Positions 1,788-62,808 of a stretch of 64,000 nt of DNA are shown here, piece after piece; the first letter of the stretch is position 1; each line of letters starts with the position of its first letter. Made by a program: the position numbers and the translations under genes. The DNA comes from Phycisphaerales bacterium (lineage in GTDB: Bacteria; Planctomycetota; Phycisphaerae; Phycisphaerales; SM1A02), in NCBI GenBank assembly GCA_029242715.1, contig JAQWTL010000002.1:7445-71444 (forward strand), given 5' to 3'. The notes beneath the pieces were generated by a model, which had not been told where the DNA came from, did no database searches, and saw only the letters and a list, made by a program, of their open reading frames with translations.

Positions 1788-1823
1788 ATGCAGCCTTCAT
1801 GGCCTGGTCGCACATGTACCTGG

Positions 1824-2465: not shown

Positions 2466-2991
2466 TGAATGAAGTCCTTATTCAGCAGCCATCAATACAA
2501 CTGAGCACCAAGATACCTGATGTGATCAGAACAAGATTGTCAGGCAGTTCAACCCGGCCTTTCAACTGCCTGATGGCGCAAGATAAGCCGTCAATCGTTG
2601 CACAGATTGAATCCACCTCCAGTGATCGAGCGGCAGAAGAAGGCCCGCAAAGTCATGGATCTGAACATCAGGTACAAAATTATGACGTCTGATTTCACCT
2701 GGATATCACTGGAATCCCCAGGAGAGACGGAACCCGCCACAAGCTTCAGCACGTCCATACTGGCTGGATAAATACTGAAATATCCGCAATATGTGAACCG
2801 TAGAACGCATTCTATGTGCCAGCCCTCAGAAAACCTCTTCCAACAGTCCTGAAGCAGGCATCAGGGGCAAGAAGCATTCCACTTGTGGGCTATAATCCGC
2901 GACCGTATTTCGTGGAAGAAATCGGCCCTGGCGCACCGGGCACCAAGCCTCTCAGCCAGGATTTCACCGGAAGACCATCGGGAGTTACAAG

Positions 2992-5169: not shown

Positions 5170-5218
5170 ATATCACAACAATGTCTCTGGACATGGAACG
5201 AATCGGGAGAAAAACAAG

Positions 5219-6676: not shown

Positions 6677-6748
6677 TCTGGAGCGTCTCCAGTTCGTACC
6701 AGGAGCCCTTCCATTGGGCCCCAGGATCATCCAATCAAGGAGTTGTCC

Positions 6749-7723: not shown

Positions 7724-7775
7724 CTTTCAAACCAATGTCATGAAGGCCTGTCAAAGGGCCAATCGGAGACACATC

Positions 7776-8375: not shown

Positions 8376-8405
8376 TTCTTCCTGACACATTGTTCGATTG
8401 AATCC

Positions 8406-8442
8406 CCAGGGGCCCGGCAGTAGTCGGGCCCCTGGTCTTTTT
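8406..8442 (+). terminator. Rho-independent terminator closing the lipoprotein operon
   Basis: Perfect 11-bp GC-rich stem CCAGGGGCCCG / CGGGCCCCTGG with an 8-nt loop, followed by TCTTTTT. Located 30 nt after the stop at 8375. Confidence 0.7.
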
Positions 8443-8664
8443 ATGCACACATGTCAGCAGTCCCGCATGTTGTCCACAGGGCAAGTGTTGCCCCCCTTTA
8501 ACACATAACGATTTCGATTTTCAACAATCCAACTGCCCACATCCCCTGAAATGCTCTCCTAAAGCTACCCTTCGGTCTTGCTGGATCCAACGGCTACCAG
8601 GCAACCTGTGGGAGATGTCATCCTGAGCCACCTGGTCCCGAAGTGATCCCTGGGAGACAAACAC

Positions 8665-9735: not shown

Positions 9736-9761
9736 ACAAGACGTCACTGGTTTCAATATAG

Positions 9762-9800
9762 ACAAGGGCGGCCCATTGGGGCCGCCCTTGTTCGTTCTTT
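9762..9800. terminator. bidirectional Rho-independent terminator between convergent genes
   Basis: Perfect 13-bp stem ACAAGGGCGGCCC / GGGCCGCCCTTGT with a 4-nt loop ATTG, then TCGTTCTTT on the + strand. It lies between the stops at 9735 (+) and 9813 (-). Confidence 0.7.
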
Positions 9801-9812
9801 CACTGGCCATGC

Positions 9813-11135: not shown

Positions 11136-11255
11136 GGTCTTTATCCTTGGTATTGCGCGGGTACGCGAGAAACGCCCCATCGAGCCCCACTATTCCGTTC
11201 GGGCCCCCGTGTGACACGAAACCCCCGGAATTGGACAAAGTCGCTTTGGAAGGGC

Positions 11256-12566: not shown

Positions 12567-12616
12567 AGTAGCGAACGACGGATGGTATTTTCCCCGGGCT
12601 ACAGGGAAGAACGGCT

Positions 12617-14854
12617 TCAAGCTGGCGTGGGCAGCCCCTCGACGATCCCATTGAGGGTTTCACTCGGCCGCATGGCCTTGGAAGCCTTCTCCGGATCAGG
12701 CTGGTAATACCCACCAACATCCATCGCCGGCCCTTGGACCCCATTGAGCTCAGCAATGATGGCATCTCGGCCGGATTCCATCGCACTGGCAATGGGACCA
12801 AACATCGATGCCAGTTCCGCATCCTGACCCTGCTCGGAGAGCGATCGCGCCCAAGCAGTTGCCAGATGAAAATGACTGCCACGATTGTCGAGTTCACCAC
12901 ATTTTCGCGACGGAGAATGATTCTGCATCAGATAGTCGGTTGTTGCCTGATCGAGAGTCTCGGAAAGCAATTTGGCCCGCTCATTGTCGAATCGGTCGGC
13001 GAGGTGCTCAAGAGAAGCTGCCAGAGCCATGTACTCTCCCAGGGAGTCCCAACGCAAGTGGTTCTCCTTCATGAACTGCTGAACATGCTTGGGGGCCGAA
13101 CCTCCTGCTCCCGTTTCAAAGAGTCCCCCACCATTCATGAGCGGGACGATGGACAACATCTTTGCACTGGTTCCTACTTCAAGAATCGGGAAGAGATCAG
13201 TGAGGTAGTCACGAAGCACGTTTCCTGTTACGGAAATCGTGTCTTCTCCACGACGGATTCGTTCAAGAGTGAACCGGGTCGCCTTGATGGGCGACATGAT
13301 GTGAAACTCCAATCCCTCGACGTCCTGCTCAGCAAGATAACGATCGACCTTGGCAACCAGTTGAGAATCATGGGCTCTCGTTCGATCCAGCCAGAAGACC
13401 GCAGGTTTACTGGTTGCACGAGCCCTTGAGATTGCCAGATTGACCCAGTCACGGATCGGAGCATCCTTGGTCTGACATGCACGCCAGATATCTCCGGCCT
13501 CTACATCATGCTCCAGAAGAACCTCTTCCTTGCCAGTCAGAATGCGAACCTTGCCATCAGAGGCAATCTCGAATGTCTTGTCATGAGAACCGTATTCTTC
13601 GGCCTTCTGAGCCATGAGTCCCACGTTGGGAACACTTCCCATGGTCGTAGGGTCATAAGCGCCATTCGCCTTGCAATCATCGATCACTGCCTGGTAAACA
13701 CCGGAGTAACTGCTGTCTGGAATGACTGCGACGGTGTCTTGAGTATCGCCCTCTGCATTCCACATGCAGCCCGATGTCCTGATCATGGCTGGCATGGACG
13801 CATCGATGATCACATCACTTGGCACGTGAAGGTTGGTAATTCCCTTGTCCGAATCAACCATCGCAAGCTGTGGACCACTCGAATAAACAGATTGAATGTC
13901 CGCTTCAATGGTCTCACGAGTTGCTTCGGGAAGCTCCTGGATCTTGGAAAGCAGATCACCGAAACCATTATTAACGTCTACACCAATTGAGTTGAAGACG
14001 TCCCCATGCTTTTCAAAGAGAGATTTGAAGAAAACACGAACGGCATGGCCGAAGATGATCGGATCTGAAACCTTCATCATCGTCGCCTTCATGTGCAAGG
14101 AGAACAGGATGCCTCGATCTTGAGCCAGCTTGATCTGATCTTCGAGAAACGAAACCAGTGCCTTGTGGCTCATGAAACTGGCATCAATGACTTCGCCCGC
14201 CAGGAGATCAAGAGAATCCTTGAGAACCGTCACGGTGCCATCTGTTGCAACATGCTCGATACGCACAGTTGCCGCATCCGTCATCGTGAGCGACTTCTCG
14301 TTGTTCCTGAAATCACCCTCGGACATGGTCGTCACGTCAGTCTTGCTGTCAGCAGACCAAGCCCCCATGGAGTGGGGATGAGCACGTGCATATTCCTTCA
14401 CAGCCTTCGGGGCTCGTCGGTCTGAATTACCCTGCCTGAGAACAGGGTTCACCGCACTACCCTTGACAGAGTCATATCGAGCTTTCACATCGTGCTCTTC
14501 GTCACTGGACGGTTCTTCCGGGTAGTCAGGAAGGTCGTATCCCTGCTTCTTCAACTCGGAAATGGCCGCCTTGAGCTGCGGAACTGATGCGCTGATATTG
14601 GGCAACTTGATGATGTTGGCCGCTGGTGTCTCTGCCATCAGACCCAGTTCCGCAAGTGCATCGTCTACACGCTGTGCCGCTTCCAACCGCTCAGGAAAGT
14701 GAGCGAGGATGCGACCTGCAAGCGAGATGTCACGCGTTTCAATCGCGATTCCAGCAGATTCACAGAAGGCACGAATGACCGGGAGGAATGCGTAGGTAGC
14801 CAGCGCTGGAGCTTCATCGGTGTGGGTGTAGATGATCGTGGGAGTTTCGGACAT
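12617..14854 (-). CDS. icd: isocitrate dehydrogenase (NADP+), monomeric type
   Basis: About 745 aa. It starts [30 protein letters not shown] and continues with ...[15 protein letters not shown]..., ...[18 protein letters not shown]..., ...[19 protein letters not shown]... This is the characteristic monomeric IDH. The track start at 14914 is an upstream TTG; the in-frame ATG is 20 codons later. Confidence 0.9.
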
Positions 14855-17286: not shown

Positions 17287-17440
17287 GGATCTAGGGTACC
17301 AGCCATAAACTCACCTCCAATGGGGCAAACAACCTGATGACGGGCCCCTCGGGCCTGTCAGCTCTTGGGCCAGACAATTCGTGTTGCTTATCCGCAGATC
17401 GCCTGGTGGAGCCGCCTCACTGGATTGGTACCATCAGGAC

Positions 17441-20400
17441 ATGATGACCGGCATGATTCATCTTGTGGTAGCAATTGGACAGTTCAGCGGTACCACCGGT
17501 GATCCAGCCGTCAAATATGGTCGGGATATCCGACCGATCCTCTCGGACCGATGCTTCCTGTGTCATGGTCCAGATGAAGCAGCACGTCAGGCCAAACTTC
17601 GACTCGACAGCTTTGAATACGCAACCGCTTCACGTCGGGGCGGACAGGCCATTACCCCCGGAAATCCAGAAGCATCGATGCTCTGGCAGCGAATCACAAC
17701 GAAGGACCCTGATGACCTGATGCCCCCTCCTGGAAGCGGGAAGCACCAACTCGATGAGACTCAGACTGAACTGATCAGGCAATGGATCATGAATGGAGCC
17801 CAGTACGAGAATCACTGGGCCTTTGAACCACTGATCAAACCTGGAGTACCTACCAGTGACGGTGACAACTGGTCACGCAACGAAATTGACCCGTTCATAT
17901 TGGAACGACTCAGAACAAATGGACTCAAACAGAATCCAGAAGCAGATCGTGCCACGCTTGCCAGACGAGTCTTTCTCGACCTGACCGGCCTGCCCCCCAC
18001 TCCAGAAGAACTCGAAGCCTTTCTCTCGGATGAAAGGCCAGATGCCTACGAACGACTTATTGACATGATCTTCACCGAGGATCCATATCGAAGCAGATAC
18101 GCCGAACGCATGGCTACACCCTGGCTTGACTTGTCACGATATGGAGACACTTCCGGCATTCATATGGATGCCGGGCGTTCGATCTGGCCCTGGCGGGACT
18201 GGGTCCTTCAGGCCTATCTGGACAACCAGCCATTCGATCAATTCGTGATCGATCAACTGGCAGGCGACCTCGTAGACAATCCCAGTCAGGATCAGGTGAT
18301 TGCCAGCGGTTTCAATCGCAACCATGTCACGAGTGATGAAGGTGGTGCCATCAACGAAGAGTATCTGCTCATGTATGCAGTAGATCGCACCAATACACTC
18401 GGAACGGTGTTCCTCGGCTTGACTGTGGGCTGCGCTCAGTGCCATGACCACAAGTTCGATCCCATTTCAACCGAGGAGTACTACGGGCTGCTGTCCTTCT
18501 TCAACAACAACGAGGAACCCGGCGTCTACAGTCAGATTCCTGACGCCTACCGTGCCATGGAACCGGCCTACGAGATTCTGCGCCCCGAAGATCGCCAGAA
18601 GATGGAAGAACTTGAGGCATATCTCGCCACGGTGATCGAGGAACGCGACACACCGACACCTGGAGAAGCGGATGGAATTGCCAGGTTTGAAAAGGATCTG
18701 CATGACAACGGGAACTGGTCATGGAACACTGCCCGGATCGGCCATACAAGCAGCAGCCATGGTTCAATCCTGAAGATTCAACCAGACGGCTCACTGCTGG
18801 CTACAGGCAATACACCTGATATCGATGACTACACGGTGACTCTCTCGACCAATGCAACGGGCATGAGAGCCATCATGGTTGAAGTCATGCAGGATGACTC
18901 GCTTCCCGATGGTCGCATTGGGCGAGCCCCGAATGGCAATGCCATCATGAGCGGGATCTCCGCAGAGGTCGTTTCACACCTTGATCCAGAGCTCAAGCAA
19001 CCTCTGAACATCACATGGGCATGGGCGGATGTCGAACAACCAAACTCCGACTTCAAGGTGACCAATGCTCTGCGAGCCGACAATGGACGCGTCTGGGCCA
19101 TGGGCGGACATGAAAAACCTGGCGGACGCGTTGCCATATTCACGACTGCGGAACCATTTGGCTTTGAAGGCGGCAGCGATGTCATCGTGACGCTCAACTT
19201 CCATTCCATCTATGCGAAACATGCTCCGGGCCGTGTTCGATTGAAACTCGGCCAACCACATGCTGATGCACTTGACCAACTTCCAACTGCCAGAACCAAC
19301 TGGTACATCGTTGGCCCCTATACATCTGGATCCAGCGACGAGCACTATGACACGGCCTATGGCCCTGAGGAAACCGGCCCACTTCGTTTCGATAAGAAAT
19401 ACCACAGGCAGTCGTGGCGATATGCACCTGGTGTCAAGGAAGCAGAAAATGTGCGACTCGCAGCAGGCAAGGGCGCCGAGTATCTCGGATGCGAGATCTA
19501 TTCACCCAACACCAGGAACATGAACATTTCTCTTGGCAGTGATGATGGCCTCATGGTCTATCACGACGGAGCGCTCGTTCTGGAAAGGCGTGTCAATCGA
19601 AGTGTCGGCCCGGATCAGGATCAACTGGCCCTTGAATTGCATCCTGGTCGAAACACACTCGTATGCAAGGTCATCAATACCGGTGGAGAAGGCGGCATCT
19701 ATCACCGCGAGATCATTGAAGAATCAAGGCTCCCTGAAGATGCCGTAGCCTTCCTCCTGCCGGGCGATGCGGTTTCAGATGCAACAAGAACACTCGCAGA
19801 AGCTGCCTGGCGACGCACATACTCCACTGGATACCTCGAAGCTGAAGCACGAGTTCAGGAGACCCGGTCCGAACTGGACAACATGAAAGCAGGCGTACCC
19901 AAAACCATGATCATGAAGGAACGAGCCGAAGCTCGCCCCACATACGTCATGATGCGCGGCGCCTATGACCAGCCGGATCTGAACAGGCCCGTCACCAGGA
20001 CGGTCCCGTCCATTCTGGGTTCCCTGGAAGCAGTTGACACCCCCGACCGGGAAGATCTTGCTCGCTGGCTTGTTGGTGATGAGAACCCGATCACTGCTCG
20101 TGTCACAGTCAACCGTACTTGGGAAATGCTCTATGGCCAGGGACTGGTCGAAACGGTTGAAGACTTCGGTTACCAGGGAACCTGGCCTACACACCCAGAA
20201 CTTCTGGACTGGCTTGCTGCTGATTTTCGTGACAACGGATGGGATGTACAGAATCTGCTTCGTACAATCATGCTCAGTGCCACCTACCGCCAGGATTCAA
20301 GGTTCAATCCGATCAATTCAGGCGATCCCGAAAACAAGCTGTATCACCACTATCCAAGGCAGAGACTGACCGCTGAGCAGATCCGGGACCAGGCCCTCTA

Positions 20401-20989
20401 CGTATCCGGCCTGTTGATCGAGAAGACTGGTGGACCCAGCGTCAAACCCTACCAGCCGGAGGGACTGTGGCAGGAAGTCGCCATGCAACAGTCCAATACA
20501 AGAACATTTGAGCAGGGAATGGGCGATGACCTGTGGCGACGCAGCCTCTATACCTATTGGAAAAGAGCTGCTCCCCCTCCCTCAATGATGGCATTGGATG
20601 CACCAACACGGGAGTACTGCTCGCCCAGGCGAATCACGACCAATACCCCACTACAGGCACTGGTGCTCTGGAATGATCCACAGTTTGTTGAAGCTGCACG
20701 ATCCACAGCAGAGCGGATCATGCATGATGGGGACACTGATGATGAGAGGATTGAGCTGCTTTTCCAGCGATGTACCGGACAGCCGCCAAGCCCGGATATC
20801 ACAGTTGCTGTCCAGGAAATCCTCAAGGAGTACCGGGCCAGATTCGAGGTAGACTCGGAGGGAGCTCTCCAGTTGATCTCTGTTGGCCAATCACCAAGAT
20901 CCGACGATCTTCCGCCAGCGGAACTCGCTGCCTGGACCATGCTTGCCAACGCCGTGCTCTCAAGTGATGCAGCGATCGTAAAGGACTGA
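17441..20989 (+). CDS. PSCyt1 / DUF1549 (PSCyt2) / DUF1553 (PSD1) domain protein
   Basis: N-terminal planctomycete cytochrome-c-like motif: IRPILSDRCFLCHGPDEAARQAKLRLD. DUF1549-like segments: IDPFILERL...GL...ADRATLARRVFLDLTGLPPTPEELEAF and WRDWVLQA. Also CAQCHDHKFDPIS. DUF1553-like C-terminal part: TRVTVNRTWEMLYGQGLV..., ...LDAPTREYCSPRRITTNTPLQAL. The track start 17381 is a GTG; ATG 17441 is preferred but uncertain. Confidence 0.85.
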   Translation: MMTGMIHLVVAIGQFSGTTGDPAVKYGRDIRPILSDRCFLCHGPDEAARQAKLRLDSFEYATASRRGGQAITPGNPEASMLWQRITTKDPDDLMPPPGSGKHQLDETQTELIRQWIMNGAQYENHWAFEPLIKPGVPTSDGDNWSRNEIDPFILERLRTNGLKQNPEADRATLARRVFLDLTGLPPTPEELEAFLSDERPDAYERLIDMIFTEDPYRSRYAERMATPWLDLSRYGDTSGIHMDAGRSIWPWRDWVLQAYLDNQPFDQFVIDQLAGDLVDNPSQDQVIASGFNRNHVTSDEGGAINEEYLLMYAVDRTNTLGTVFLGLTVGCAQCHDHKFDPISTEEYYGLLSFFNNNEEPGVYSQIPDAYRAMEPAYEILRPEDRQKMEELEAYLATVIEERDTPTPGEADGIARFEKDLHDNGNWSWNTARIGHTSSSHGSILKIQPDGSLLATGNTPDIDDYTVTLSTNATGMRAIMVEVMQDDSLPDGRIGRAPNGNAIMSGISAEVVSHLDPELKQPLNITWAWADVEQPNSDFKVTNALRADNGRVWAMGGHEKPGGRVAIFTTAEPFGFEGGSDVIVTLNFHSIYAKHAPGRVRLKLGQPHADALDQLPTARTNWYIVGPYTSGSSDEHYDTAYGPEETGPLRFDKKYHRQSWRYAPGVKEAENVRLAAGKGAEYLGCEIYSPNTRNMNISLGSDDGLMVYHDGALVLERRVNRSVGPDQDQLALELHPGRNTLVCKVINTGGEGGIYHREIIEESRLPEDAVAFLLPGDAVSDATRTLAEAAWRRTYSTGYLEAEARVQETRSELDNMKAGVPKTMIMKERAEARPTYVMMRGAYDQPDLNRPVTRTVPSILGSLEAVDTPDREDLARWLVGDENPITARVTVNRTWEMLYGQGLVETVEDFGYQGTWPTHPELLDWLAADFRDNGWDVQNLLRTIMLSATYRQDSRFNPINSGDPENKLYHHYPRQRLTAEQIRDQALYVSGLLIEKTGGPSVKPYQPEGLWQEVAMQQSNTRTFEQGMGDDLWRRSLYTYWKRAAPPPSMMALDAPTREYCSPRRITTNTPLQALVLWNDPQFVEAARSTAERIMHDGDTDDERIELLFQRCTGQPPSPDITVAVQEILKEYRARFEVDSEGALQLISVGQSPRSDDLPPAELAAWTMLANAVLSSDAAIVKD

Positions 20990-51332: not shown

Positions 51333-52439
51333 TCAGTTCGAGGGTTCAGAAACCAGTAATCGAATGGCCTGCTCGACAAGGAGATAGTCCTGGTTGCGCT
51401 GGGACTGCTCAGGATCCTTGGTCGGGTGGAAGACGGGACCAGGGTGAACAAACCGAATAATTCCATCTTCATCGACGAGGATGCTCACGCTGGTCGCCCC
51501 GCGATCACCGGACGCCAGGTACGCCCGCTTGAGTTCCGACCAGTCCAAGTCAACGGCAACATCACCGCCGTACTTGAATTTCTTGGCCGCAGCGAGAATG
51601 ACTTCATCCGTCTCCGGATGTGGTGGTTTGGGATGATAGACCGCAACGGTACGAAGGCCCGCCTTGCCATACTTCTTCCGCAGGGTTTCGATCGCAGGCA
51701 GGCTGGCCTCACACCACGGACAGGCATCAGTCCACCAACGGTACAAGGTTGCTTTAGGTTTCTTTGTGATCGAAGTTCCCTGTCGTGCCCAGCGATCTGG
51801 TTTCAATGAGGGAAATTTCTTTCCAATGAGATCCTGGCCACCTCGGTCTGCTGGCAACGTCTCAATCTCGACGCTTTCCTTTGCTTTCACGGGTTCCAGA
51901 AGCAGCGCATCGATGACTTCTTTGCCTTGAGCAGGAGAGATATGAAAGTCGTTGTATCGAACGATGCCATTCCGATCAATGATGATGGTCCAGGGCGTCC
52001 CTCCTGTTCGATATGAACGCATCAGTCTCGAGGGCTTTCCAGGCCTCCCCGAATGCCCGATCGGAATATCCAACTCATACCTTTCACCCGTCGATTTCGC
52101 CTTGGCCGGGGTATTGGTTGTATAGCCTTCAAAGACTGTCTGAACAGCCACGAAAGCGACCTTGTCATTGCCTTTGTATTTCTCAATGAGGGCCTTCAAG
52201 GTCGGGAAGCCACGAGAATGACAACCCGGGCACCAGGATTGGAAACCATACAGGTAGATCACCTTGCCTTGAAGGTCGCTGACATCCAGATCCTGAGATC
52301 CCTCAGGCAGGTTGAACCATTCGTCAACTTGCCATGCCGGAGCTGGACGTCCTCCAATCCCCCGTGATTGTGCCAGGACTTCAGTCGTGAGCACAGGGAG
52401 CAAAGACAGGACGAAGAGCGTTATGAACCATCGAGCCAT
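51333..52439 (-). CDS. secreted protein with two thioredoxin/TlpA-like domains
   Basis: Signal peptide. Two redox motifs: YGFQSWCPGCHSRGFPTL and RWWTDACPWCEASLPAIETL. Confidence 0.75.
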   Translation of the reverse strand: MARWFITLFVLSLLPVLTTEVLAQSRGIGGRPAPAWQVDEWFNLPEGSQDLDVSDLQGKVIYLYGFQSWCPGCHSRGFPTLKALIEKYKGNDKVAFVAVQTVFEGYTTNTPAKAKSTGERYELDIPIGHSGRPGKPSRLMRSYRTGGTPWTIIIDRNGIVRYNDFHISPAQGKEVIDALLLEPVKAKESVEIETLPADRGGQDLIGKKFPSLKPDRWARQGTSITKKPKATLYRWWTDACPWCEASLPAIETLRKKYGKAGLRTVAVYHPKPPHPETDEVILAAAKKFKYGGDVAVDLDWSELKRAYLASGDRGATSVSILVDEDGIIRFVHPGPVFHPTKDPEQSQRNQDYLLVEQAIRLLVSEPSN

Positions 52440-54594: not shown

Positions 54595-57270
54595 CTAGCA
54601 CCCCCCAGCCCAGCAAGCCAGGACAGCCAGGATGTCCTCCACATCAACGACGCCGTCACCATTGAGATCCTCGGGACAGCCTTCACAATCCCCGAAGGCG
54701 TTCAAGATCGCAAGGAGATCCTCAACGTTGACCTCACCATCACCATTGACATCACCAGCAGCCTGGCAGGAGTCCGGGATGTTGTCCTCGTCGGCGTCGG
54801 TGCAGGTATCAGCGAAGCAGTTCACACCCATGTCATTGAAGGGGCCAGTGATGTGGTCCGGTGTGTTGTCGCAGAACACACTCCAGGACACATCAGGTGC
54901 CGCCCAGTCGAGTGATGCGATGGCGCCACCGTACCAACCCTCACCAGCGATATTACCTGAGAAGCGGCAATGCTCGATCACTGAATGACCACCATCGATA
55001 TGCATGGCTCCACCCTGTTCATCCGAGACATTGTCGGTAAAATGGCATCGCTGCAGTTGCAGGTCGTTACTGCTGATGACCAGCGCCGCACCGCGTCGTC
55101 CAGTATTGGACATGAAGTGCGAATCAGCGATCGCACCCGTACCTGAACCGCTGCCACTACTCGTCAAGTCAATTGCACCAGCGGAATTGGATGCCGAATT
55201 ACGATTGAACAGACAGTCAGCAATGTCAAGATTCTGAACACTGGCCCAGATACCGCCGCCATACGCAGAATCGTTGAGCTCCAGATAGCAGTTGTCTGCC
55301 TCAAGGGAGTCCACGATGGCATACAGACCACCACCACTGAACTCTGCGGTGTTCTCTTTAAACGAGCAATCCTGCAATGCTGCCTGCATTCCTTCAGCGT
55401 GAATGGCACCCCCGGTACCCGTCGCATGGTTGTTCAGGAAGCGACAGTTCTTGACCACCAGGTTGTCGCCAGAAAAGAACACGCCGGCCCCTCTCTGTGA
55501 CCAGCAGTCCTGGATTGTGAATCCGTCTATCGTGAGATCACCGTTGTTGCAGACGATGCAGCCTGACAATCCGCCGCCATCAATAAACGTGAACATGGGG
55601 CCATCAGTACTTTGGATCACCAATGGCTTGTTACTGGAATACACACCATCCCAAGTGCCAGGCCCTACCAGGATTCGATCGCCAAGTTGAGCCGCATCCG
55701 CAGCTTCCTGGATAGTGGCATATTCCCAAGGCACAAGGAGATCAGATTCACCACCACCAAGCGCATCAATACAAGCCATCAGGTCAGGCAGAGGACCAAT
55801 ACGCTCTTCCTCGATCGGAATACCAAACTGTGATTGCTGTGGCTGGCCGGATAGTTGCAAACGCCATTTCAAACCTGCAGGTGAAAGTGGTGATCCGAGA
55901 TTCGCCTTGCACCAAGACTGCACCAGGATGCAGGCACCAGCAACGATGGGTGAAGCTCCAGATGTACCACCGAAGTCATCGCGATACTCGCAACCAGAAA
56001 CTGACCAGATCGTGCCTGTAGAAGAAGAGGATGGACCAGTCGTGACGATATTGTCACCCCATCCCTGGAGATCGACCGTAGATCCAAAGTTGGAAAAACT
56101 ACTTCGTGTTCGGTCCATACCAAACTTCCCGGATCGTCCTGCACCAACGATGATTGCGCCGGAATCACGCTCCGCCAGAAAGGGCCAGTGCCCATCGTTG
56201 ATTTTCCCAAGATATGGAATTTCAAGCGAATACAAAGGATCGTCAAGATCTTCCCTGCCGTTACCGGCAGCTTCAACAACTACCCTGCCATTAGCGGTTG
56301 CAATCCGAATCGCGTGATAGTTCGGCTCGAACCATTCCACAGGGATAAGACCAGCCTGCGTATTACTATTGGGATTGAATCGAGGGCCGGCAGTCTGAGC
56401 CTCCAGCAGGATGACATCACCAGGATTCATCGTGGCGCCAGCTTTCAGGATCGCAAAATCGATACCCAATCGGAGACCAGGAGTCAGCCTGATGAAGGAT
56501 GGATGAAAATAGGTTTGATCAACACCATGAGCAACACCCGTTGTCCCGACAGAATCGTCAAGGGCAACAACTTGGCCGATCGTAGCGGTTCCATGATGAG
56601 GCCCGAACGCACTGTATTGTGGCCCAAGCGATGTGACCGCCGGGAGGTCACAGTGACCGTCTCCGAATTCGTACTCGATGTCACAGAACTGAATACCCTG
56701 CCCGGTAATACCGTAGACATTCCAGATCGCATCTGCCCCGATCCCATTGTCAGCAGTTGAACCCAGGTACTCTTGATCTGACTCATAGTCAGGCTGTCCA
56801 ACAAATGGTTCATTCACCACCATTGGAACAGGAATCGCCTGAGTCACCCATGCCAATTCCCGTGCCGCCTCGATGGCTGCCCAGGTGTCCGTGCCACCCT
56901 GAAGTCTGACGTAGACACCCTGCCAAGGCTTGGGAATCGACTGCTGCAAGGTCGCTTCTGCGGTTGCATGCATGTCGGACAGGACTTCCAGATCCAGATC
57001 ACCGGTTGCACTCGTCCATTCGGCTCCAATCATCAATGGAATATGGTCTGGCATGCCCGGCAAACTGAGGCCCTCCATGGCCTCATCAGGGGGAACGCCG
57101 TCTGCGAAATGGAGATACATCAGACCCGGCTCATGGCCGGGATGCATACCGATTACAGGCCATTCATTGGGATCATCATTTTGACCTCCAAGAGCCATCG
57201 GACTTGCAAGAGAAACGGTCGTCAATAGAACAGCCAACGGCCTCCAGGCCGTACGTGAATCGCGTGACAT
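54595..57270 (-). CDS. secreted subtilisin-like (S8) serine protease with beta-helix repeats and C-terminal dockerin-like domain
   Basis: Catalytic motifs: QFCDIEY (Asp), GPHHGTATIG (His), EAAGNG (oxyanion Asn), GGTSGASPIVAG (Ser). Then PbH1-like repeats (VVKNCRFLNNHATGTGGAI, LQDCSFKENTAEFSGGGL, IADCLFNRNSASNSAGAI, LQRCHFTDNVSDEQGGAM, IEHCRFSGN). Tail: DVNGDGEVNVEDLLAILNAFGDCEGCPEDLNGDGVVDVEDILAVLACWAGGC. Confidence 0.8.
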   Translation of the reverse strand: MSRDSRTAWRPLAVLLTTVSLASPMALGGQNDDPNEWPVIGMHPGHEPGLMYLHFADGVPPDEAMEGLSLPGMPDHIPLMIGAEWTSATGDLDLEVLSDMHATAEATLQQSIPKPWQGVYVRLQGGTDTWAAIEAARELAWVTQAIPVPMVVNEPFVGQPDYESDQEYLGSTADNGIGADAIWNVYGITGQGIQFCDIEYEFGDGHCDLPAVTSLGPQYSAFGPHHGTATIGQVVALDDSVGTTGVAHGVDQTYFHPSFIRLTPGLRLGIDFAILKAGATMNPGDVILLEAQTAGPRFNPNSNTQAGLIPVEWFEPNYHAIRIATANGRVVVEAAGNGREDLDDPLYSLEIPYLGKINDGHWPFLAERDSGAIIVGAGRSGKFGMDRTRSSFSNFGSTVDLQGWGDNIVTTGPSSSSTGTIWSVSGCEYRDDFGGTSGASPIVAGACILVQSWCKANLGSPLSPAGLKWRLQLSGQPQQSQFGIPIEEERIGPLPDLMACIDALGGGESDLLVPWEYATIQEAADAAQLGDRILVGPGTWDGVYSSNKPLVIQSTDGPMFTFIDGGGLSGCIVCNNGDLTIDGFTIQDCWSQRGAGVFFSGDNLVVKNCRFLNNHATGTGGAIHAEGMQAALQDCSFKENTAEFSGGGLYAIVDSLEADNCYLELNDSAYGGGIWASVQNLDIADCLFNRNSASNSAGAIDLTSSGSGSGTGAIADSHFMSNTGRRGAALVISSNDLQLQRCHFTDNVSDEQGGAMHIDGGHSVIEHCRFSGNIAGEGWYGGAIASLDWAAPDVSWSVFCDNTPDHITGPFNDMGVNCFADTCTDADEDNIPDSCQAAGDVNGDGEVNVEDLLAILNAFGDCEGCPEDLNGDGVVDVEDILAVLACWAGGC
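54598..54762 (-). other. dockerin-like double EF-hand module ending in WAGGC
   Basis: AAGDVNGDGEVNVEDLLAILNAFGDCEGCPEDLNGDGVVDVEDILAVLACWAGGC. Confidence 0.6.
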
Positions 57271-57458
57271 GTTTAGGGCTCCTTATCAAGACGTCACCAC
57301 ACACTGGACAACGTCTCGCTCAAGAAAGAGGCTTTGACAGCCCGCCTGACACTGCGATTTGGAATTTGTGACAACATGACAAACTATCAAAAATGCCTCC
57401 TGTCTACTGACAGGATCCGAATCCGGATGACAACACCTCGGCAGAGCCCACAACAGAA

Positions 57459-57498
57459 CCCGTGGGTGGTCCCGGACGACACCGAGACCACCCACGGG
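57459..57498 (-). terminator. strong hairpin, candidate terminator of the small ORF 57541..57678
   Basis: Perfect 13-bp stem CCCGTGGGTGGTC / GACCACCCACGGG with a 14-nt loop. The minus-strand downstream sequence is TTCTGTTG. Confidence 0.4.
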
Positions 57499-57540
57499 TG
57501 GAATAAGACAAGTTTGTAACGGACACTCGCAGTTCAGCAG

Positions 57541-57678
57541 TCACCCTGCCGGCAGTTGATCAAAGCTATCCTTGTTGTCTGCCCCGTACACAGCGGTCGA
57601 TTCAATTCCTGTGCAAACGATTGATGCAATAAGTGACATGGTCAACATGGCGCCGACCCGACTGGTTCTGCTCAGCAT
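57541..57678 (-). CDS. possible small secreted peptide (45 aa)
   Basis: Internal ATG of track ORF 57541..57729, preceded by AAGGGAA about 7 nt upstream. Sequence: MLSRTSRVGAMLTMSLIASIVCTGIESTAVYGADNKDSFDQLPAG, i.e. a signal-like N-terminus plus a polar tail of about 20 aa. A hairpin follows it. Short, so low confidence. Confidence 0.3.
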   Translation of the reverse strand: MLSRTSRVGAMLTMSLIASIVCTGIESTAVYGADNKDSFDQLPAG

Positions 57679-58181
57679 GTAAGTTCCCTTATCTTGCTTT
57701 GAATTGGAAGATTGATTCCCTGAAACCAACCTTCCCTATGCAGTTAATCAGCAGATATGTGACTTACTTGTCAGCGGGGATTTGAATTTGCACGTGAAAC
57801 CACTCAGGCACTTCCAGAGGCCATTTTTGGTCAATATCAGGAAATTCTCGAATCCATCTGACAGACATACCTGTCAGATACTGATGCATATATGGATACG
57901 AAAGTCTCGTATCCAGGAACTGCAAGCCCAATTGGCCAAAGTTCCGTCGCATGGGAGACGGTCATAGAGCCTGCATGGCTCAGACCTGCTGAAATCAAAG
58001 CCCTCAAATCAGCCCGGCTCAGGCCGATAGCTGCCAGTGGCACTGCAGCCTGCTGGAACCGTATTGCCCTCACAAAGTCGACTGCCGACTTCAAATGAAC
58101 ATGCATAGCTCGGGAGCTCCCGCAACTCAGCGCGCCCCGGATGTGACATGGAGTATCTGTGCAGAAAAGGAGAACCAAGAG

Positions 58182-58913
58182 ATGTTGATGAAAATTGTGG
58201 CAAGTATTGCCCTTGTTACCACCATCGCAGCCGTCACCACGACCACGTGGAGTCGCGAGAACGATGAGTTTGACGGTATTGCCAAAGGAGGTGTTCTTTT
58301 CAATGGAACGCTACTGGAAGCACCGTTTATTGTGCGATTTCAGGATGAACTTCTGACAATCAACCAAGCTGAAATTGGAAAAGTGGAGACCGTCGATATA
58401 ACGAGCGAGCAATACTCACTCGATACCATTGATGGTGTTATCCAACAGGCCTATACGATTCATGATGCAATCATGAAAGTGTCAGGCAAGAATACGGCGA
58501 TCAAATCAACAATCAATACCCTTGTTGCCAGTCCTCTTGTTGATTCTGCCATAGTCAACGGTGACGCTATTGATGTTCAATTCAAAGGAGAAGAGTTTGT
58601 TGAAGTCCTCATGTTTGACTTTGACAACCGTAATCAAGATCTGGAATTGAACCAAGTCAATTTTCTGAAGGAACGCCAGCAGATGATCAAGTACTTCTTA
58701 AATGAAGATCGCATGGTCATACTTCAAGATGGCATTCTCGTCATCACGGAACCTGGCTCCGCAAAATCCAAAGTTGATGAACTACGTTCTGCATTATCTG
58801 ATGGTGTTGATGAACAAGAACGCCGAAAACAACTTCTTAAGATTATTCCCGACCAATTAGTTGCAAATCGTGTCGCTCAGACGCTTAAAGACAATGAGGA
58901 GGCAACTCGATGA
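58182..58913 (+). CDS. membrane-anchored protein of unknown family, cassette copy 1 (small partner)
   Basis: ATG 58182 sits 9 nt after AAGGAG. N-terminal anchor: MLMKIVASIALVTTIAAVTTTTW. It aligns with 62050..62808 (blocks ...RMVILQDGILVITEP..., ...LLKIIPDQLVANRVAQTL). Its stop overlaps the next ATG (ATGA). Confidence 0.6.
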   Translation: MLMKIVASIALVTTIAAVTTTTWSRENDEFDGIAKGGVLFNGTLLEAPFIVRFQDELLTINQAEIGKVETVDITSEQYSLDTIDGVIQQAYTIHDAIMKVSGKNTAIKSTINTLVASPLVDSAIVNGDAIDVQFKGEEFVEVLMFDFDNRNQDLELNQVNFLKERQQMIKYFLNEDRMVILQDGILVITEPGSAKSKVDELRSALSDGVDEQERRKQLLKIIPDQLVANRVAQTLKDNEEATR

Positions 58914-61606
58914 AATCCTTCTCCAAACAAGTTGTTTTCTTACTCACGATCGCAATGATGACGATCGCATCCGCAACAGTCAACGGCGCAAATAGAACAC
59001 CGGGTGACGACAAGGGTGCTGACCATACCGCCTTCTATTTTGGGCCTTATGACTGGTCTGGCTTTACCAAATATGTCCCATACAAAACTCATGTTTGTAG
59101 TGGCGGCGGAATGGGCCAACAATACTCCGCTTCTTTTTATCAGGAGATGTCTGCACCAGCTTCCACTTCACAAGTTTGCACAATCGCAAGCTTTCACAGT
59201 TTGATATCTAATAACAATCAGTCTTTAGCGACCTTACTCATTGATACTCACGGCAGTACAGGATTTATGGCAATTGAAAGCTTTGCCAAAACTCCTGCCG
59301 GCAGAGTTGCTCGGGACCTGCGATATAACAAGTACATCACAGGCAACTTTCCTGGAGCCCCAACGTTTTTGGCGTCTGATCTGGGACGTGGCTCAACTCA
59401 CGACTCACATTGCATCAGCATCAGATCAAGCTTTATCACTCGCTACGCGAACGTCCCTTCCAGCCTGGTGTATAACTCGAGCTGTAGCGGCGCAAGCCTG
59501 AATGCCACATGGGTCGCTGCAGGCGCACGTGTCTCACTAGGATATTCCGGAACTGTCCAATCAGGCGTAGCCTACGCAGGTGTAAAAACGTTCTTTTCGC
59601 GCATGGATGGCCAGGCAGGAATCACGAACCGACCGGTTTCAAAAGCCCGTGCCGGAGTCGCACAACTGTCAGTATCAGGCAATGAGGCTACAACCTTGGT
59701 TCCAGCCGTTCTATCCGTAAATGCCCCTTGTCCGATTCAAGTTGGTGACAAGGTGACCTACACCATGGATACAGAATGCGAACAAGCCATTCCAAGCGAA
59801 GTTATTGGAATCAATTGCACAATCGAAGGCGAAGTATGGTTGTCCAAAACTACGCTCCAGGGAACGTGTACCGCAGTACAGGGAGATGGAACTTTCTATG
59901 GATTGAGATTGGAATGGGGATCAGTCTGGAGTGACTGGAATATTGCTCATCTCGATGGCAATACCGTGCCCCCAGTCAATGCCAAGGGCAGGGCCCATGA
60001 TGATCACCTCATATATAAATCATGTCCGCAAGTATGCATTGGTGATTACGACAATGACACCTCTGTCAACATTAACGACATCCTAGCCATCCTCAGTGAT
60101 TGGGAAATCACCGGAATCGATGTTCTCCTCGGAGCACTCGACAACTGGGGCTCTGACTGCCCAACTGGCGCATGTTGCACTTATGAGTATTGCATGTCAG
60201 ACGTGAGTCCCGAAGAATGTGAATATTGGGATGGCGTCTATCAAGGTGATGATTCGACCTGTGACACGACCGTATGTTCTTCAAATGGAGCCTGCTGCTT
60301 CCCGCCCTATGACTGCGTGGACAGCTTCCCTGAACTCGAATGCTATGAACTTGGCGGAGATTTCTATGGGCCTGGTTCAACATGCAACAGCAATGACTGC
60401 TGGAGCTATCCCCTCGGTGCCTGCTGTTATGAAGATGGCACCTGCACCCCTGATGTTACAGAGGTCGATTGCTTGAACAGTGGCGGCTTCTTCATGGGGC
60501 TTGACTCCACCTGCGATCTTTGCGACGTGTATGATCCCATTGGTGCTTGCTGCGTTGATCTCGGAGATGGCAACGAGTGCTATCAGCTCTCCGAATTCGA
60601 TTGCACACTTTTCAATGGCATGTTCATCAGCGTGGGCATCAGTTGCGATGAAGTTCCTGAATGTGCCCCAACTGGCGCCTGCTGTGTTCCTGTAGGTGAC
60701 ACACCTTCATGTTATGACGCAGTGACACAGGATCTGTGTGAAGGCGGCAGTTGGTTTGAAGGCCAGACCTGCGAGGACATCAATTGGGAATGCACACCTC
60801 CTTGGGGCGCGTGTTGCCTGCTAGACATCAATGCGTGTCTGGATGGCTTCAGTGAAATCGAGTGCAATCAAGAAAATGGTGTTTTCTACGTGGAAACGAC
60901 CTGCAGCGATGTCACTTGCGAAGGCACTATTGGAGCCTGCTGTGTTGGCCCAGATTGCTACGTCATGACTGCATGGCAATGTGGCGAACTCAATGGCGAT
61001 TACCTGGGAGACTCGACGGATTGCAGCGGTACCCCTTGCCAAGAGCCTCCTGGCACAGGTGCTTGCTGCATCTATGACGGCATGGGGAATGGCTCATGCA
61101 CACTCACGATTGAAACTGATTGTGACGAAGTAGGCGGCCAGTACTATGGTGATGGCACTGGATGCAATGACATCCTTTGTGATGTCATACCGGTCGGTGC
61201 ATGCTGCTTCACGAATGGCGACTGCATGGACAGCATTGACTTGAATGAGTGCAAGGCCATGGGTGGCATCTTCCAATCAGACGCTGATTGCAACGGGACA
61301 TCCTGCTTCCCTGACAGCGGCGCCTGCTGCTGGTCGGATGGCACATGCTCAGACAATGTCGGTTCAGAGGATTGCACCTATGCCGGCGGTTTTTTCTATG
61401 CAACTAATAGCTGCATAGATGCTCCATGTGACGTCCCCGTTGAATGCCCCAATGGCGAAATCGAGGACTGCAACGGTAATTGCTTTCCAGCGAACTGGGT
61501 AGGCGATGGCATCTGTGATGATGCAACAACATGGGACGCTGTGTTCAATTGTCCGGAGTTCAACTGTGATGGAGGCGACTGCCCTCCGGAGAATTGCGGC
61601 GGTTAA
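58910..61606 (+). CDS. giant secreted Cys-rich protein, cassette copy 1: conserved His/Cys N-terminal domain + single dockerin-like loop + 10 GACC six-Cys repeats + LNR-like module
   Basis: Signal peptide: MKSFSKQVVFLLTIAMMTIASATVNGA. N-domain motifs: TPGDDKGADHTAFYF, LLIDTHGS, VYNSSCSGAS, FFSRMDGQAGITNRPV. Dockerin-like loop: CIGDYDNDTSVNINDILAILSDWE (60035-60106). See the repeat and LNR features for the rest. Confidence 0.75.
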   Translation: MKSFSKQVVFLLTIAMMTIASATVNGANRTPGDDKGADHTAFYFGPYDWSGFTKYVPYKTHVCSGGGMGQQYSASFYQEMSAPASTSQVCTIASFHSLISNNNQSLATLLIDTHGSTGFMAIESFAKTPAGRVARDLRYNKYITGNFPGAPTFLASDLGRGSTHDSHCISIRSSFITRYANVPSSLVYNSSCSGASLNATWVAAGARVSLGYSGTVQSGVAYAGVKTFFSRMDGQAGITNRPVSKARAGVAQLSVSGNEATTLVPAVLSVNAPCPIQVGDKVTYTMDTECEQAIPSEVIGINCTIEGEVWLSKTTLQGTCTAVQGDGTFYGLRLEWGSVWSDWNIAHLDGNTVPPVNAKGRAHDDHLIYKSCPQVCIGDYDNDTSVNINDILAILSDWEITGIDVLLGALDNWGSDCPTGACCTYEYCMSDVSPEECEYWDGVYQGDDSTCDTTVCSSNGACCFPPYDCVDSFPELECYELGGDFYGPGSTCNSNDCWSYPLGACCYEDGTCTPDVTEVDCLNSGGFFMGLDSTCDLCDVYDPIGACCVDLGDGNECYQLSEFDCTLFNGMFISVGISCDEVPECAPTGACCVPVGDTPSCYDAVTQDLCEGGSWFEGQTCEDINWECTPPWGACCLLDINACLDGFSEIECNQENGVFYVETTCSDVTCEGTIGACCVGPDCYVMTAWQCGELNGDYLGDSTDCSGTPCQEPPGTGACCIYDGMGNGSCTLTIETDCDEVGGQYYGDGTGCNDILCDVIPVGACCFTNGDCMDSIDLNECKAMGGIFQSDADCNGTSCFPDSGACCWSDGTCSDNVGSEDCTYAGGFFYATNSCIDAPCDVPVECPNGEIEDCNGNCFPANWVGDGICDDATTWDAVFNCPEFNCDGGDCPPENCGG
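60167..61444 (+). repeat. ten tandem ~42-aa six-cysteine 'GACC' repeats (protein-level)
   Basis: Each unit fits G-A-C-C-x(3-8)-C-x(7-8)-C-x(2-4)-G-[GDM]-x-[FY]-x(4-7)-C-x(3-5)-C. Examples: GACCYEDGTCTPDVTEVDCLNSGGFFMGLDSTCDLCDV, GACCFTNGDCMDSIDLNECKAMGGIFQSDADCNGTSCF, GACCWSDGTCSDNVGSEDCTYAGGFFYATNSCIDAPCDV. The nucleotide sequences are diverged. Confidence 0.8.
61445..61603 (+). other. Notch/LNR-like Cys-rich module at the C-terminus
   Basis: CPNGEIEDCNGNCFPANWVGDGICDDATTWDAVFNCPEFNCDGGDCPPENCGG. It fits the LNR pattern C..C...W.GDG.CD....N C....C DGGDC. Confidence 0.6.
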
Positions 61607-61632
61607 GTCAACCGTCTTGAATTGAACTGAAA

Positions 61633-61666
61633 ACAACTGCCGGTTCCCTTGGGAGCCGGCAGTTGT
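61633..61666 (+). terminator. strong hairpin separating the two cassette copies
   Basis: ACAACTGCCGGTTCC...GGAGCCGGCAGTTGT forms a stem of about 14 bp (one G:U pair), 27 nt after the stop. The U-tract is weak (CATTGTC). Confidence 0.5.
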
Positions 61667-62049
61667 CATTGTCGCAGGCTCAAGAGCATGAACCTCAGGG
61701 CCACAGGGCTGTCAGCACCCCGGCCGTGACCGCTGCAAAGATCACACCATGTGTGATGGTCTTGTCATTACATCCAGAGACTTTGAATGAAATTTAAATG
61801 AGCAGGTAATGAATTCCCACTGCCAAGAGATCTTGGTGGCAGACCAGACATTCCAGGAATTGAACAAGTGATGGCCAATGTATGAAAGGCCTGTGAAAGC
61901 CCTTTCAGAAGGTTCTCTTGGAAATCTGACAAATTTCCCGACTTGAACTGACAGAACACCACGATTTCCGCAAGAAGAGGATTGGAGGCCCCGTTTAGTT
62001 TTTGTGCTCTGTGGGAAAATTTGCCCTCTTGCGTATATGGGAGAGTCAC

Positions 62050-62808
62050 ATGTCAAAGCGCTATCAATGCGCTGTCGTCGCCACGATCGGATCGATCGTG
62101 GTCCTCACGACAGCATCCTTCAGTTGGTGGGCCCCGGCCCCAAATGCCCCGAAATCAAACATCAATACTGGTGCCCTGGTCCTGGATGGCACCGAAATCG
62201 CGAAGCCCTTTGATATTGGAATTGAAGGCGACCAGGTCCAGGTCAACGGTCAGGTGATTCTTGAGGTCACTCCACCGGCCCCGGCCACGCCCGAGGTGTA
62301 CGACCTCGATACAGCCTACGGCGTCATCAGCAATGCCATGGAGCAGTACGCCATCATCCAGAGCGACCGAGGCGTCGACGCGGCCTCCGCCAGTACGTTG
62401 AAACTCCTCCGCGAAAGCGAACTCGTGGATTCGGCCCGGTCCTTGAACTCGGGCACATTCGAAGTGTTTCTCAAAGGTGACCCGTATCCTGAAATCCTCG
62501 AGCTTTCCGGCGAGCGGTCAACACCCGTGGGATCCGCAAGTGCTCGACAAGCTCTCCGTGAACGTCATGTCGCCATCGAGAACTTCCTCCGACAAGGTCG
62601 GCTGGTCGTGCTCCAGGACGGCATTCTCGTCGCAACCGAGCCGAACACCGCTGATGAGCGGATCACTGCCATTCGAGACGCCTCGGACCCCGACCTGGGC
62701 CTTGCCCAGCGGCGGGAACTGCTGCAGTCGGTCATTCCCGACGCATTGGTAGCGGAGCTGCTCGCAAACCGGCTACAGGCTGACAGCGGAAAGGTGGTGC
62801 AGCCATGA
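62050..62808 (+). CDS. membrane-anchored protein of unknown family, cassette copy 2 (small partner)
   Basis: ATG 62050 is preceded by GGGAGAG. N-terminal anchor: MSKRYQCAVVATIGSIVVLTTASFSWW. Paralogue of 58182..58913. Its stop overlaps the next ATG (ATGA at 62805-62808). Confidence 0.6.
   Translation: MSKRYQCAVVATIGSIVVLTTASFSWWAPAPNAPKSNINTGALVLDGTEIAKPFDIGIEGDQVQVNGQVILEVTPPAPATPEVYDLDTAYGVISNAMEQYAIIQSDRGVDAASASTLKLLRESELVDSARSLNSGTFEVFLKGDPYPEILELSGERSTPVGSASARQALRERHVAIENFLRQGRLVVLQDGILVATEPNTADERITAIRDASDPDLGLAQRRELLQSVIPDALVAELLANRLQADSGKVVQP

Follow-up and report, generated by a model that had tools for sequence, protein, structure and literature searches.

An uncatalogued six-cysteine tandem repeat in a Phycisphaerales bacterium and its resemblance to a sub-module of the iRhom homology domain

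Arrays of EGF domains, such as those of fibrillin and Notch, act as beads-on-a-string stalks, and they serve here as the analogy for a bacterial array. Another described system close to this array is the iRhom homology domain of animals (IRHD, also called IHD), which consists of about 240 residues with 16 cysteines in eight disulfides, carries the iCERES loop, and is located between the transmembrane helices TM1 and TM2 of a rhomboid-like pseudoprotease (PMC11248996, PMC10148629). Its fold was published as unique and unprecedented (PMC11248996, PMC10148629), and it docks the protease ADAM17 and its prodomain (PMC11248996). The array described here lies in a stretch of 64,000 nucleotides (the window) from a Phycisphaerales bacterium (contig JAQWTL010000002.1, positions 7,445 to 71,444), where ten tandem units that each begin with G-A-C-C form part of a predicted secreted protein. 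The domain family to which these GACC units belong is real, ancient and very widespread and has no entry in the curated libraries tested, and a sub-module of the IRHD probably shares the fold of one unit.

The array occupies 426 codons of a single open reading frame (ORF) without a stop, and G-A-C-C occurs ten times in that frame, at the start of each unit listed in Table 1. Elsewhere in the six frames of the window, the motif G-[AS]-C-C is found only as one unrelated GSCC on the minus strand. The units are 40–46 residues long, and all ten contain six cysteines. An earlier reading of the DNA made without database searches (the sequence-only reading) had described ten consecutive GACC-led units with four further cysteines each and about 60 cysteines in about 425 residues; both descriptions hold, with 60 cysteines counted in 426 residues. 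When the ten units are aligned, G1, A2, C3, C4, two more cysteine columns and a central glycine are invariant, while the other cysteines are shifted by insertions and deletions. The central G-G-x-[FY] motif of the same reading is present in most units but not in all of them, as unit 1 has DGVY and unit 4 NGMF. A profile of 1,382 units from other proteins, from which the window protein and its orthologues had been left out, matches the window protein with 218.7 bits (E = 4.7e-61 for a library of 1.84 billion sequences). On this protein it finds ten matches of 16.9–35.5 bits each between residues 418 and 846, which is far beyond chance. The array has the features by which the family is defined, namely a G-A-C-C start, six cysteines, a central G-G-x-[YFW] and a tandem arrangement, and all ten of its units are matched.

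The units have diverged extensively from one another. Their pairwise DNA identity is 50–63%, with a mean of 55%, and Tandem Repeats Finder reported no array in the array DNA. Each unit is closest to the unit of the same number in the orthologue P0001, which is 61% identical to the window protein. Identities between units of the same number are 50–70% for nine of the ten and 36% for unit 6, and those off the diagonal are 25–48%. Unit 5, the most divergent, is 77% identical to unit 5 of both P0002 and P0003. Because the DNA of the units is only 50–63% identical and the units pair one to one with those of P0001, the array must be old, predates the split from P0001 and has been stably inherited. 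The sequence-only reading was therefore right to regard it as a well-diverged, maintained array rather than a product of recent slippage. Since individual units remain distinct and recognizable from one orthologue to the next, unit-specific surfaces appear to be under selection. Not all arrays of the family share this history. P0008 contains 17 units, of which 15 form a run that is mostly 85–100% mutually identical, so some lineages have expanded their arrays recently, unlike the old array of the window.

To estimate the size of the family, a profile of 28 units was searched against 1.84 billion cluster representatives (clusters at 50% identity). It matched 9,201 proteins at E≤1e-3, 4,664 at E≤1e-10 and 1,265 at E≤1e-30, with up to 38 units in one protein. 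The 2,530 units located in the best 158 of the 9,201 proteins have the consensus G-A-C-C-[LF]-P-D-G-[ST]-C-x7-C-x3-G-G-x-[YFW]-Q-G-D-G-T-x-C-x4-C-P and the spacing CC-x(4-9)-C-x(7-8)-C-x(11-13)-C-x(4-6)-C. Five cysteine columns are conserved at 99% and the sixth at 87%, mostly because local alignments stop early. The aromatic residue (Y, F or W) beside G-G is present in 91% of these units. The other conserved positions are glycine, alanine, proline and turn residues, a pattern that is typical of a scaffold. In a census anchored on the hidden Markov model (HMM), exactly six cysteines were found in 95% of 1,934 complete, non-redundant units. Across the family, lysine makes up 0.4%, arginine 1.1% and cysteine 13.8% of residues, and the net charge is -4.8 per unit; the array of the window contains 77 aspartates and glutamates and a single lysine or arginine.

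Despite its size, the family has no counterpart in the libraries that were scanned. The array has no match at E≤1 among the 24,736 models of Pfam-A or in NCBIfam release 20, as expected from the sequence-only reading, in which the pattern differed from those of EGF, Lin-12/Notch (LNR), myxococcal cysteine-rich and thrombospondin type 3 repeats. No family was matched in a Pfam scan of ten other repeat-rich GACC proteins. Source records that give GACC proteins a name, from Phycisphaerae and Candidatus Eisenbacteria, use 'hypothetical protein' in every case, and full-text literature searches found no description of the repeat. The sole known relative of the unit is a sub-module of the IRHD. Since the IRHD has no Pfam model and does not form a repeat family, the view that the units match no annotated repeat family still stands.

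To examine the distribution of the family, a single genome of each GTDB species was scanned for DNA with three phased GACC motifs, and at least 118 stretches matched. Among the matches listed, a six-frame HMM check found at least two units in 94 of 118. Judged by record title, these confirmed loci are overwhelmingly from Planctomycetota, especially Phycisphaerae, and all of them are metagenome-assembled genomes (MAGs). The planctomycetotal loci are labelled Phycisphaerae, Phycisphaerales, Phycisphaeraceae, Planctomycetaceae, Planctomycetales and, once, Isosphaeraceae. At least six of the others are from Candidatus Eisenbacteria and at least three from Myxococcota; a few more contigs are unclassified or have probably been mis-binned. 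The search with a unit HMM that the sequence-only reading had proposed has extended the repeat to thousands of protein clusters. Chance explains the pattern matches to Streptomyces, Mycobacterium, Aeromonas, Nostoc, Coriobacteriaceae and other groups, in which the six-frame check found no units. Two confirmed loci carry labels of phyla in which the family is otherwise absent among the matches listed. A MAG labelled Micrococcales (L003, PAAU01000004.1) has ten units on a short contig of 8.5 kb, which is probably a binning error, and a MAG labelled Proteobacteria (L113) has three. The densest locus among the matches listed is in a planctomycetotal MAG (L102, JBCCFX010000049.1, positions 1-8000), with 49 units in 8 kb.

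The repeat is also present in viruses, in predicted tail-fibre proteins. The DNA pattern matched 43 IMG/VR viral contigs, 24 of which were confirmed with the HMM. In one of them (L127, positions 5250-8420 and 8435-12835), GACC units follow collagen-like tail-fibre N-termini (phrog_8745, phrog_6320 and phrog_30509), and these genes adjoin another tail-fibre gene. In a second contig (L130, positions 3782-6547), an ORF of about 20 units is located two genes downstream of a tape-measure gene.

The fold of the unit was predicted with AlphaFold2 for units 9 and 10 from a di-unit alignment of 94 sequences. The model is confident for the units themselves (mean predicted local distance difference test score, pLDDT, 84.6), with a predicted template modelling score (pTM) of 0.51 and lower confidence in the linker. 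In both units, G-A-C-C forms a strand that is followed by a turn at D/N-G, a second strand, a short helix at the fourth cysteine and a short strand at G-G-x-[YF], and the last two cysteines lie in the loop after that strand. The linkers between units are 4–6 residues long and often rich in proline. The low linker confidence and the pTM of 0.51 suggest that the beads may move relative to each other. A search of viral structures (BFVD) with Foldseek returned nothing significant; the best match was an uncharacterized protein of Cafeteria roenbergensis virus (E3T4H5; 1.4 Å over 38 columns, 26% identity, probability 0.75, E = 2.1).

The pairing of the cysteines can be approached through units that have lost some of them. 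Among 11 units with four cysteines, C2 and C6 are absent together in eight and C3 and C5 in one, and the other two lack C3, C5 and C6 and have a new cysteine beside C4. These paired losses in a few variants suggest the connectivity C1-C4, C2-C6 and C3-C5. Three disulfides per unit in an extracytoplasmic protein, as proposed in the sequence-only reading, would agree with these losses, with the predominance of six-cysteine units and with the signal peptide that can be read from the sequence. A further variation is seen in P0121 (units at 38-246) and P0158 (units at 662-787), where seven-cysteine units alternate and the extra cysteines are complementary between neighbours. This arrangement suggests inter-unit disulfides that would lock some arrays into a rigid form.

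The comparison with the IRHD was made with the structures of iRhom1 (RHBDF1) and iRhom2 (RHBDF2), PDB entries 8SNL, 9XY4, 9Q7Y and 9O58. When a di-unit profile was run with hmmsearch against all PDB sequences, only iRhom1 (E = 7.1e-5 and 8.8e-5) and iRhom2 (E = 2e-3) were matched, and nothing else was found at E≤10. The single-unit profile returned only noise from the PDB sequences (E≥0.6), with iRhom1 inside that noise. One stretch of the IRHD of iRhom1 aligns to a full GACC unit with the six cysteines in register and shares its G-x-[YF] and T-x-C positions, and the first half of a unit can be aligned to another part of the IRHD further upstream. The independent profile of 1,382 units gives the iRhom2 stretch 28.1 bits, a score inside the range of the window's own units, and gives 4.5 bits or less to the controls (EGF, hevein, an LDL-A-like module and the C-terminal module of the window protein). 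If the iRhom stretches are shuffled with their cysteines fixed, only 0–3 of 1,000 shuffles reach the real score. Alignment of the GACC and iRhom profiles with hhalign gave P = 1.9e-4 and a probability of 47%. In addition, the model of units 9 and 10 has three Foldseek matches in the PDB, all of them chains of iRhom1 or iRhom2; the best (9xy4_A; 2.3 Å over 45 columns, 29% identity, probability 0.85, E about 1) is not significant alone. Pfam has no model that matches the iRhom fragments, literature searches found no link of the IRHD to bacteria, and the text of the iRhom cryo-EM papers contains no explicit disulfide list.

Based on these results, the statistical support for the link between the two is moderate, and the shared fold of one GACC unit and an IRHD sub-module is probable. 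Homology is plausible but not proven. A more extensive proposal is that true homology links the GACC unit to the cysteine-rich IRHD core and that the IRHD consists of two GACC modules, of which the second is intact and the first is split by two insertions, the hypervariable loop in its C4-C5 interval and the iCERES loop in its C5-C6 interval. On this proposal, the module would be an ancient and massively expanded building block of bacterial and phage surface fibres that was shared with, or acquired by, eukaryotes. We consider this proposal possible, although the balance is somewhat against it, and the derivation of the first IRHD module from a split GACC unit is speculation from the sequences.

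The protein that carries the array begins with a putative signal peptide (Table 1), and in all orthologues a conserved N-[RK]-T-P-G-D-D comes after a hydrophobic N-terminus. The N-terminal domain was modelled by AlphaFold from nine sequences (overall pLDDT 71, about 80-95 in the core). Foldseek matched it to CHAT proteases (Craspase TPR-CHAT), DdvA, MALT1, separase and legumain with E-values of 2e-3 to 0.1, and with probabilities of up to 0.99 for the CHAT matches. The candidate catalytic residues are His114-Gly115 (the histidine codon at 59249-59251) and Cys192 (59483-59485). Both are immediately preceded by a beta strand, and H-G and C-x-G are invariant in all nine sequences of the domain. 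The likeness to clan CD peptidases lies in this His-Gly and Cys dyad, which occurs in the same order and in the same places after strands. The domain has no sequence match in Pfam (including CHAT and Peptidase_C14), NCBIfam or the PDB. Judging from the model, it looks like a divergent clan CD peptidase, a fold that is likely but can be assigned only tentatively. A word-indexed homologue search returned ten matches for the whole protein and three for the N-terminal domain, for which about ten homologues were found in 5.8 billion sequences; either the family is rare or the word index was saturated by words from the repeat.

The dockerin-like segment in front of the array had only a weak, non-significant match in the PDB (cellulosomal dockerin 2y3n_B, E = 0.67), and Pfam Dockerin type I (PF00404) has no match in the window GACC protein. 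For the eight-cysteine module at the C-terminus, no Pfam match was obtained at E≤10, and its best PDB match, the LDL-A module of Tva (E = 0.15), is not significant. This module also occurs in the GACC proteins of locus L108 (minus-strand ORFs 2237-3772 and 3940-6912) and in L075, and its placement varies from C-terminal, as in the window, to directly after the signal peptide or internal, as in L108. Because it is N-terminal in GACC proteins of L108 and is also found in L075, it is best regarded as a companion module rather than a sorting signal. Other GACC proteins carry signal peptides, SdrD_B adhesin domains and dockerin-like ends, and some have a weak, sub-threshold match to Por_Secre_tail, the sorting domain of the type IX secretion system (T9SS), at the C-terminus. 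Two further types of C-terminal end are recurrent. A conserved tail, S/T-W-G-x-I-K-x-x-[YF]-R, is present in P0012, P0016, P0018, P0021, P0028, P0030, P0068, P0102, P0105 (from Candidatus Eisenbacteria), P0157 and others, and G-L-C-P followed by a hydrophobic helix and an arginine-rich tail ends P0056, P0063, P0080, P0082, P0149 and P0151. From their sequences, both look like uncatalogued sorting signals, and together with the SdrD_B domains, these ends fit surface display.

We lean slightly towards the reading that the array is a disulfide-stapled, acidic, beads-on-a-string module of an extracellular stalk or fibre that is exported to an oxidizing compartment. Each unit would be a small extracellular domain that folds independently and is held by three disulfides, with G-A-C-C as the first strand of a hairpin. 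After Sec export, the disulfides would form in the periplasm or outside the cell, and the units and their short linkers would produce a strongly acidic, oxidatively cross-linked and semi-rigid string of beads. As a stalk or fibre, this string could separate a head, made up of the caspase/CHAT-like, beta-sandwich and dockerin-like domains, from the LNR-like end, which probably binds calcium. More generally, the GACC module would be a mobile building block of thousands of surface proteins in Planctomycetota, Candidatus Eisenbacteria and Myxococcota and of phage tail fibres. The presence of the family in phage tail fibres and the near absence of lysine and arginine make the rod-like, protease-resistant stalk of the sequence-only reading plausible. 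The analysis establishes the repeat itself, its conservation and distribution, a confident predicted fold and the absence of a curated family, and from this evidence we infer the formation and connectivity of the disulfides, the extracellular location and the role as a stalk or fibre.

Several points weigh against this reading. Selected surfaces that are specific to individual units are not needed by a pure spacer and fit binding roles, and the only relative of known function, the IRHD, is a protein-docking platform and not a spacer (PMC11248996). Moreover, the disulfide map is deduced from 11 variant units, and the orientation of neighbouring units is not predicted with confidence (pTM 0.51), so 'rod-like' is not established by the model.

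The first of these points leads to an alternative in which the units are themselves binding modules. In this case, a variable surface formed by the x7 segment and the helix would be displayed on a constant scaffold, and the array would bind glycans, proteins or particles multivalently, as an adhesin or receptor-binding device. The one-to-one conservation of units between orthologues would be explained, as would the aromatic residue that nine-tenths of the units have next to G-G and the presence of GACC units in phage tail-fibre proteins and beside SdrD_B adhesin domains. However, the conserved positions are structural (glycine, alanine, proline and cysteine), and purely structural shaft repeats also exist in tail fibres. 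In addition, proteins with 16–22 near-identical units, such as P0008, fit a role in length or avidity better than a diversity of specificities. On balance, we consider binding modules unlikely, but worth serious attention.

An analogy with the iRhoms raises a different function for the array, that of an IRHD-like platform for protease docking or regulation, which would bind and restrain the caspase-like domain of its own protein, a pro-segment, the co-encoded partner protein or a substrate. A putative clan CD peptidase is part of the same protein as the array, whose only structural and sequence relatives are the iRhom1 and iRhom2 extracellular domains, which dock ADAM17 and its prodomain (PMC11248996). 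Nevertheless, most GACC proteins do not have a peptidase-like domain, P0007 retains that domain and the partner gene but has no array, and the analogy depends on a distant similarity, all of which makes this function improbable. It is very improbable that the cysteines bind metals, as in metallothioneins, or buffer redox state, or that the array mainly sequesters Ca2+ or other cations: the cysteine content, extreme acidity and conserved D-G and G-D-G-T motifs would suit such roles, but the signal peptide and the extracellular domains that accompany the units point to an oxidizing location, paired cysteine loss is what disulfides predict, the confident compact fold places the cysteines in strands and a helix, and the units lack the His- or Cys-cluster motifs of typical metal sites.

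The array protein is encoded directly downstream of a partner gene, for which no Pfam, NCBIfam or PDB match of note was obtained. From the sequence, the true start of the partner is likely the ATG at 58188 (MKIVASIALVTTIAAV...), which would give a protein of about 241 residues with an N-terminal membrane anchor or signal. Homologues of the partner are located directly upstream in five of five loci with the N-terminal domain (the two copies in the window, L001, L120 and L121; E = 1e-58 to 9e-5). One of the five loci is that of P0007, in which the N-terminal domain and the partner gene occur together without an array. Because both are kept there, the N-terminal domain and the partner belong together, and the array is an extension that can be exchanged.

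This two-gene cassette is tandemly duplicated in the window. The second main protein is 49% identical to the first and 61% identical to P0002, which has nine GACC units, so the second copy is likely to have its own array beyond the window. The subtilase upstream is also tagged with a dockerin, and hence the locus is rich in dockerin-tagged secreted proteins. A scan of 57271-62100 for promoters and terminators gave no more matches than shuffled sequence, and scans of the window for tRNAs and Rfam families found nothing.

Table 1. Features of the window and of related loci. Positions are those of the window except where a locus is named; bits are scores against the independent profile.
Feature	Position	Strand	Remarks
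PSCyt1/PSCyt2/PSD1 protein	17381..20989		marks the window as planctomycetal
Protein with two stretches matching Redoxin/AhpC-TSA thioredoxin-fold families	51333..52439	-	about 6.5 kb upstream
Secreted protein, 891 residues: subtilase (Peptidase_S8), right-handed beta-helix/PMP repeats, C-terminal dockerin/EF-hand pair	54595..57270	-	matches Dockerin_1
Partner gene, ORF of 272 residues as listed	58095..58913	+	ORF list; overlaps main gene by 4 nucleotides (ATGA)
Main ORF, predicted secreted multidomain protein, 898 residues, 79 Cys	58910..61606	+	full-length orthologue P0001, 61%; P0002-P0006 have the same architecture
Putative signal peptide MKSFSKQVVFLLTIAMMTIASA, A-S-A cleavage motif	58910..58975	+	read from sequence
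Alpha/beta domain resembling clan CD (caspase/CHAT) peptidases	59174..59680	+	AlphaFold model m99b2fc9a9eca, Foldseek
All-beta Ig-like sandwich domain	59708..60025	+	AlphaFold secondary structure; Foldseek matches to Ig-like and L,D-transpeptidase N-domains
Dockerin/EF-hand-like segment (GDYDNDTSVNINDILAILSDW...LDNWGSDC)	60026..60166	+	motif by eye; two helices in model
GACC array, ten units	60167..61444	+	60 Cys; frame of ORF 58910-61606
GACC unit 1, 40 residues	60167..60286	+	31.5 bits
GACC unit 2, 43 residues	60287..60415	+	32.7 bits
GACC unit 3, 42 residues	60416..60541	+	35.5 bits
GACC unit 4, 44 residues	60542..60673	+	27.6 bits
GACC unit 5, 44 residues	60674..60805	+	16.9 bits; most divergent
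GACC unit 6, 42 residues	60806..60931	+	25.1 bits
GACC unit 7, 42 residues	60932..61057	+	35.4 bits
GACC unit 8, 46 residues	61058..61195	+	34.4 bits
GACC unit 9, 41 residues	61196..61318	+	26.4 bits; in AlphaFold model
GACC unit 10, 42 residues	61319..61444	+	27.2 bits; in AlphaFold model
C-terminal eight-Cys LNR/LDL-A-like module	61445..61603	+	motif C..C....W.GDG.CDD....NC...CDGGDC, read from sequence
Partner paralogue, second cassette copy	62002..62808	+	31% identity, E = 2e-31 to first partner
Second main-gene copy, first 398 residues	62805..64000	+	window ends inside its dockerin-like segment
Partner homologues	L001 3070-3807; L120 824-1624; L121 1867-2604		often 4-nucleotide overlap with downstream gene

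The family comprises more than 9,000 protein clusters (50% identity) that are invisible to Pfam and NCBIfam. Large surface proteins of Planctomycetota (especially Phycisphaerae), Eisenbacteria and Myxococcota and some phage fibres are only 'hypothetical' at present because the family is uncatalogued, and with a curated model thousands of proteins would gain an annotation and be marked as extracellular. At the locus itself, a duplicated cassette has been identified, with a probable membrane-anchored partner and a predicted secreted, caspase-like protein on a proposed GACC stalk. For the biology of iRhoms, the repeat would provide a first out-group to a domain for which two structural papers state no structural relative. 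The tandem bacterial version would also be a tractable system for the study of the fold and its disulfide map, and it would offer a hypothesis for the assembly of the IRHD. Finally, protein engineering gains a candidate scaffold in a module that is compact, highly acidic, free of lysine and arginine and probably triply disulfide-bonded, and that can be strung together in dozens of copies.

Among the described systems, EGF arrays are similar to the GACC arrays in that both have about 40 residues and six cysteines per unit and occur in tandem in secreted or surface proteins. The two differ in spacing, which is CC-x5-C-x7-C-x12-C-x4-C in GACC units, and in connectivity, which is 1-3, 2-4 and 5-6 in EGF compared to the proposed 1-4, 2-6 and 3-5. 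The EGF control reached only 4.5 bits against the unit profile, and the EGF-like domain (PF00008) has no Pfam match at E≤1 in the array or in ten other array proteins. The Lin-12/Notch repeat (PF00066) likewise has no match in the array. The resemblance to LNR and LDL-receptor class A modules is confined to the C-terminal end module with its GDG-x-CDD ... NC ... CDGGDC motif, which scores -3.6 bits against the unit profile and is unrelated to the GACC unit. The myxococcal cysteine-rich repeat (TIGR02232/PF13948, DUF4215-type) is also a bacterial, extracellular, cysteine-rich tandem repeat, and GACC arrays are present in Myxococcota MAGs (L029, L055 and L087), but neither NCBIfam nor Pfam gave a match at E≤1, and CxxCDDGN is absent from the units. 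Thrombospondin type 3 repeats (PF02412) have no Pfam match, and their DxDxDGxxDxxD motif is absent.

The IRHD is a closer relative, but the array is not an IRHD. The likeness of sequence and structure holds for one unit only. While the IRHD is a single domain of about 240 residues with long hypervariable and iCERES loops, the array is a tandem series of six-cysteine units in which those loops are absent. The IRHD has proline in place of alanine before CC and is not notably acidic, unlike the GACC units. The window protein also differs from the iRhoms in having a signal peptide, no rhomboid core and no transmembrane helices after the signal peptide, so that its architecture is not that of an IRHD protein. 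Overall, the small, cysteine-rich extracellular tandem repeat is a well-known kind of element, but as far as tested, the novelty lies in this family and its scale, in the use of the repeat in phage fibres and in the link to the iRhoms.

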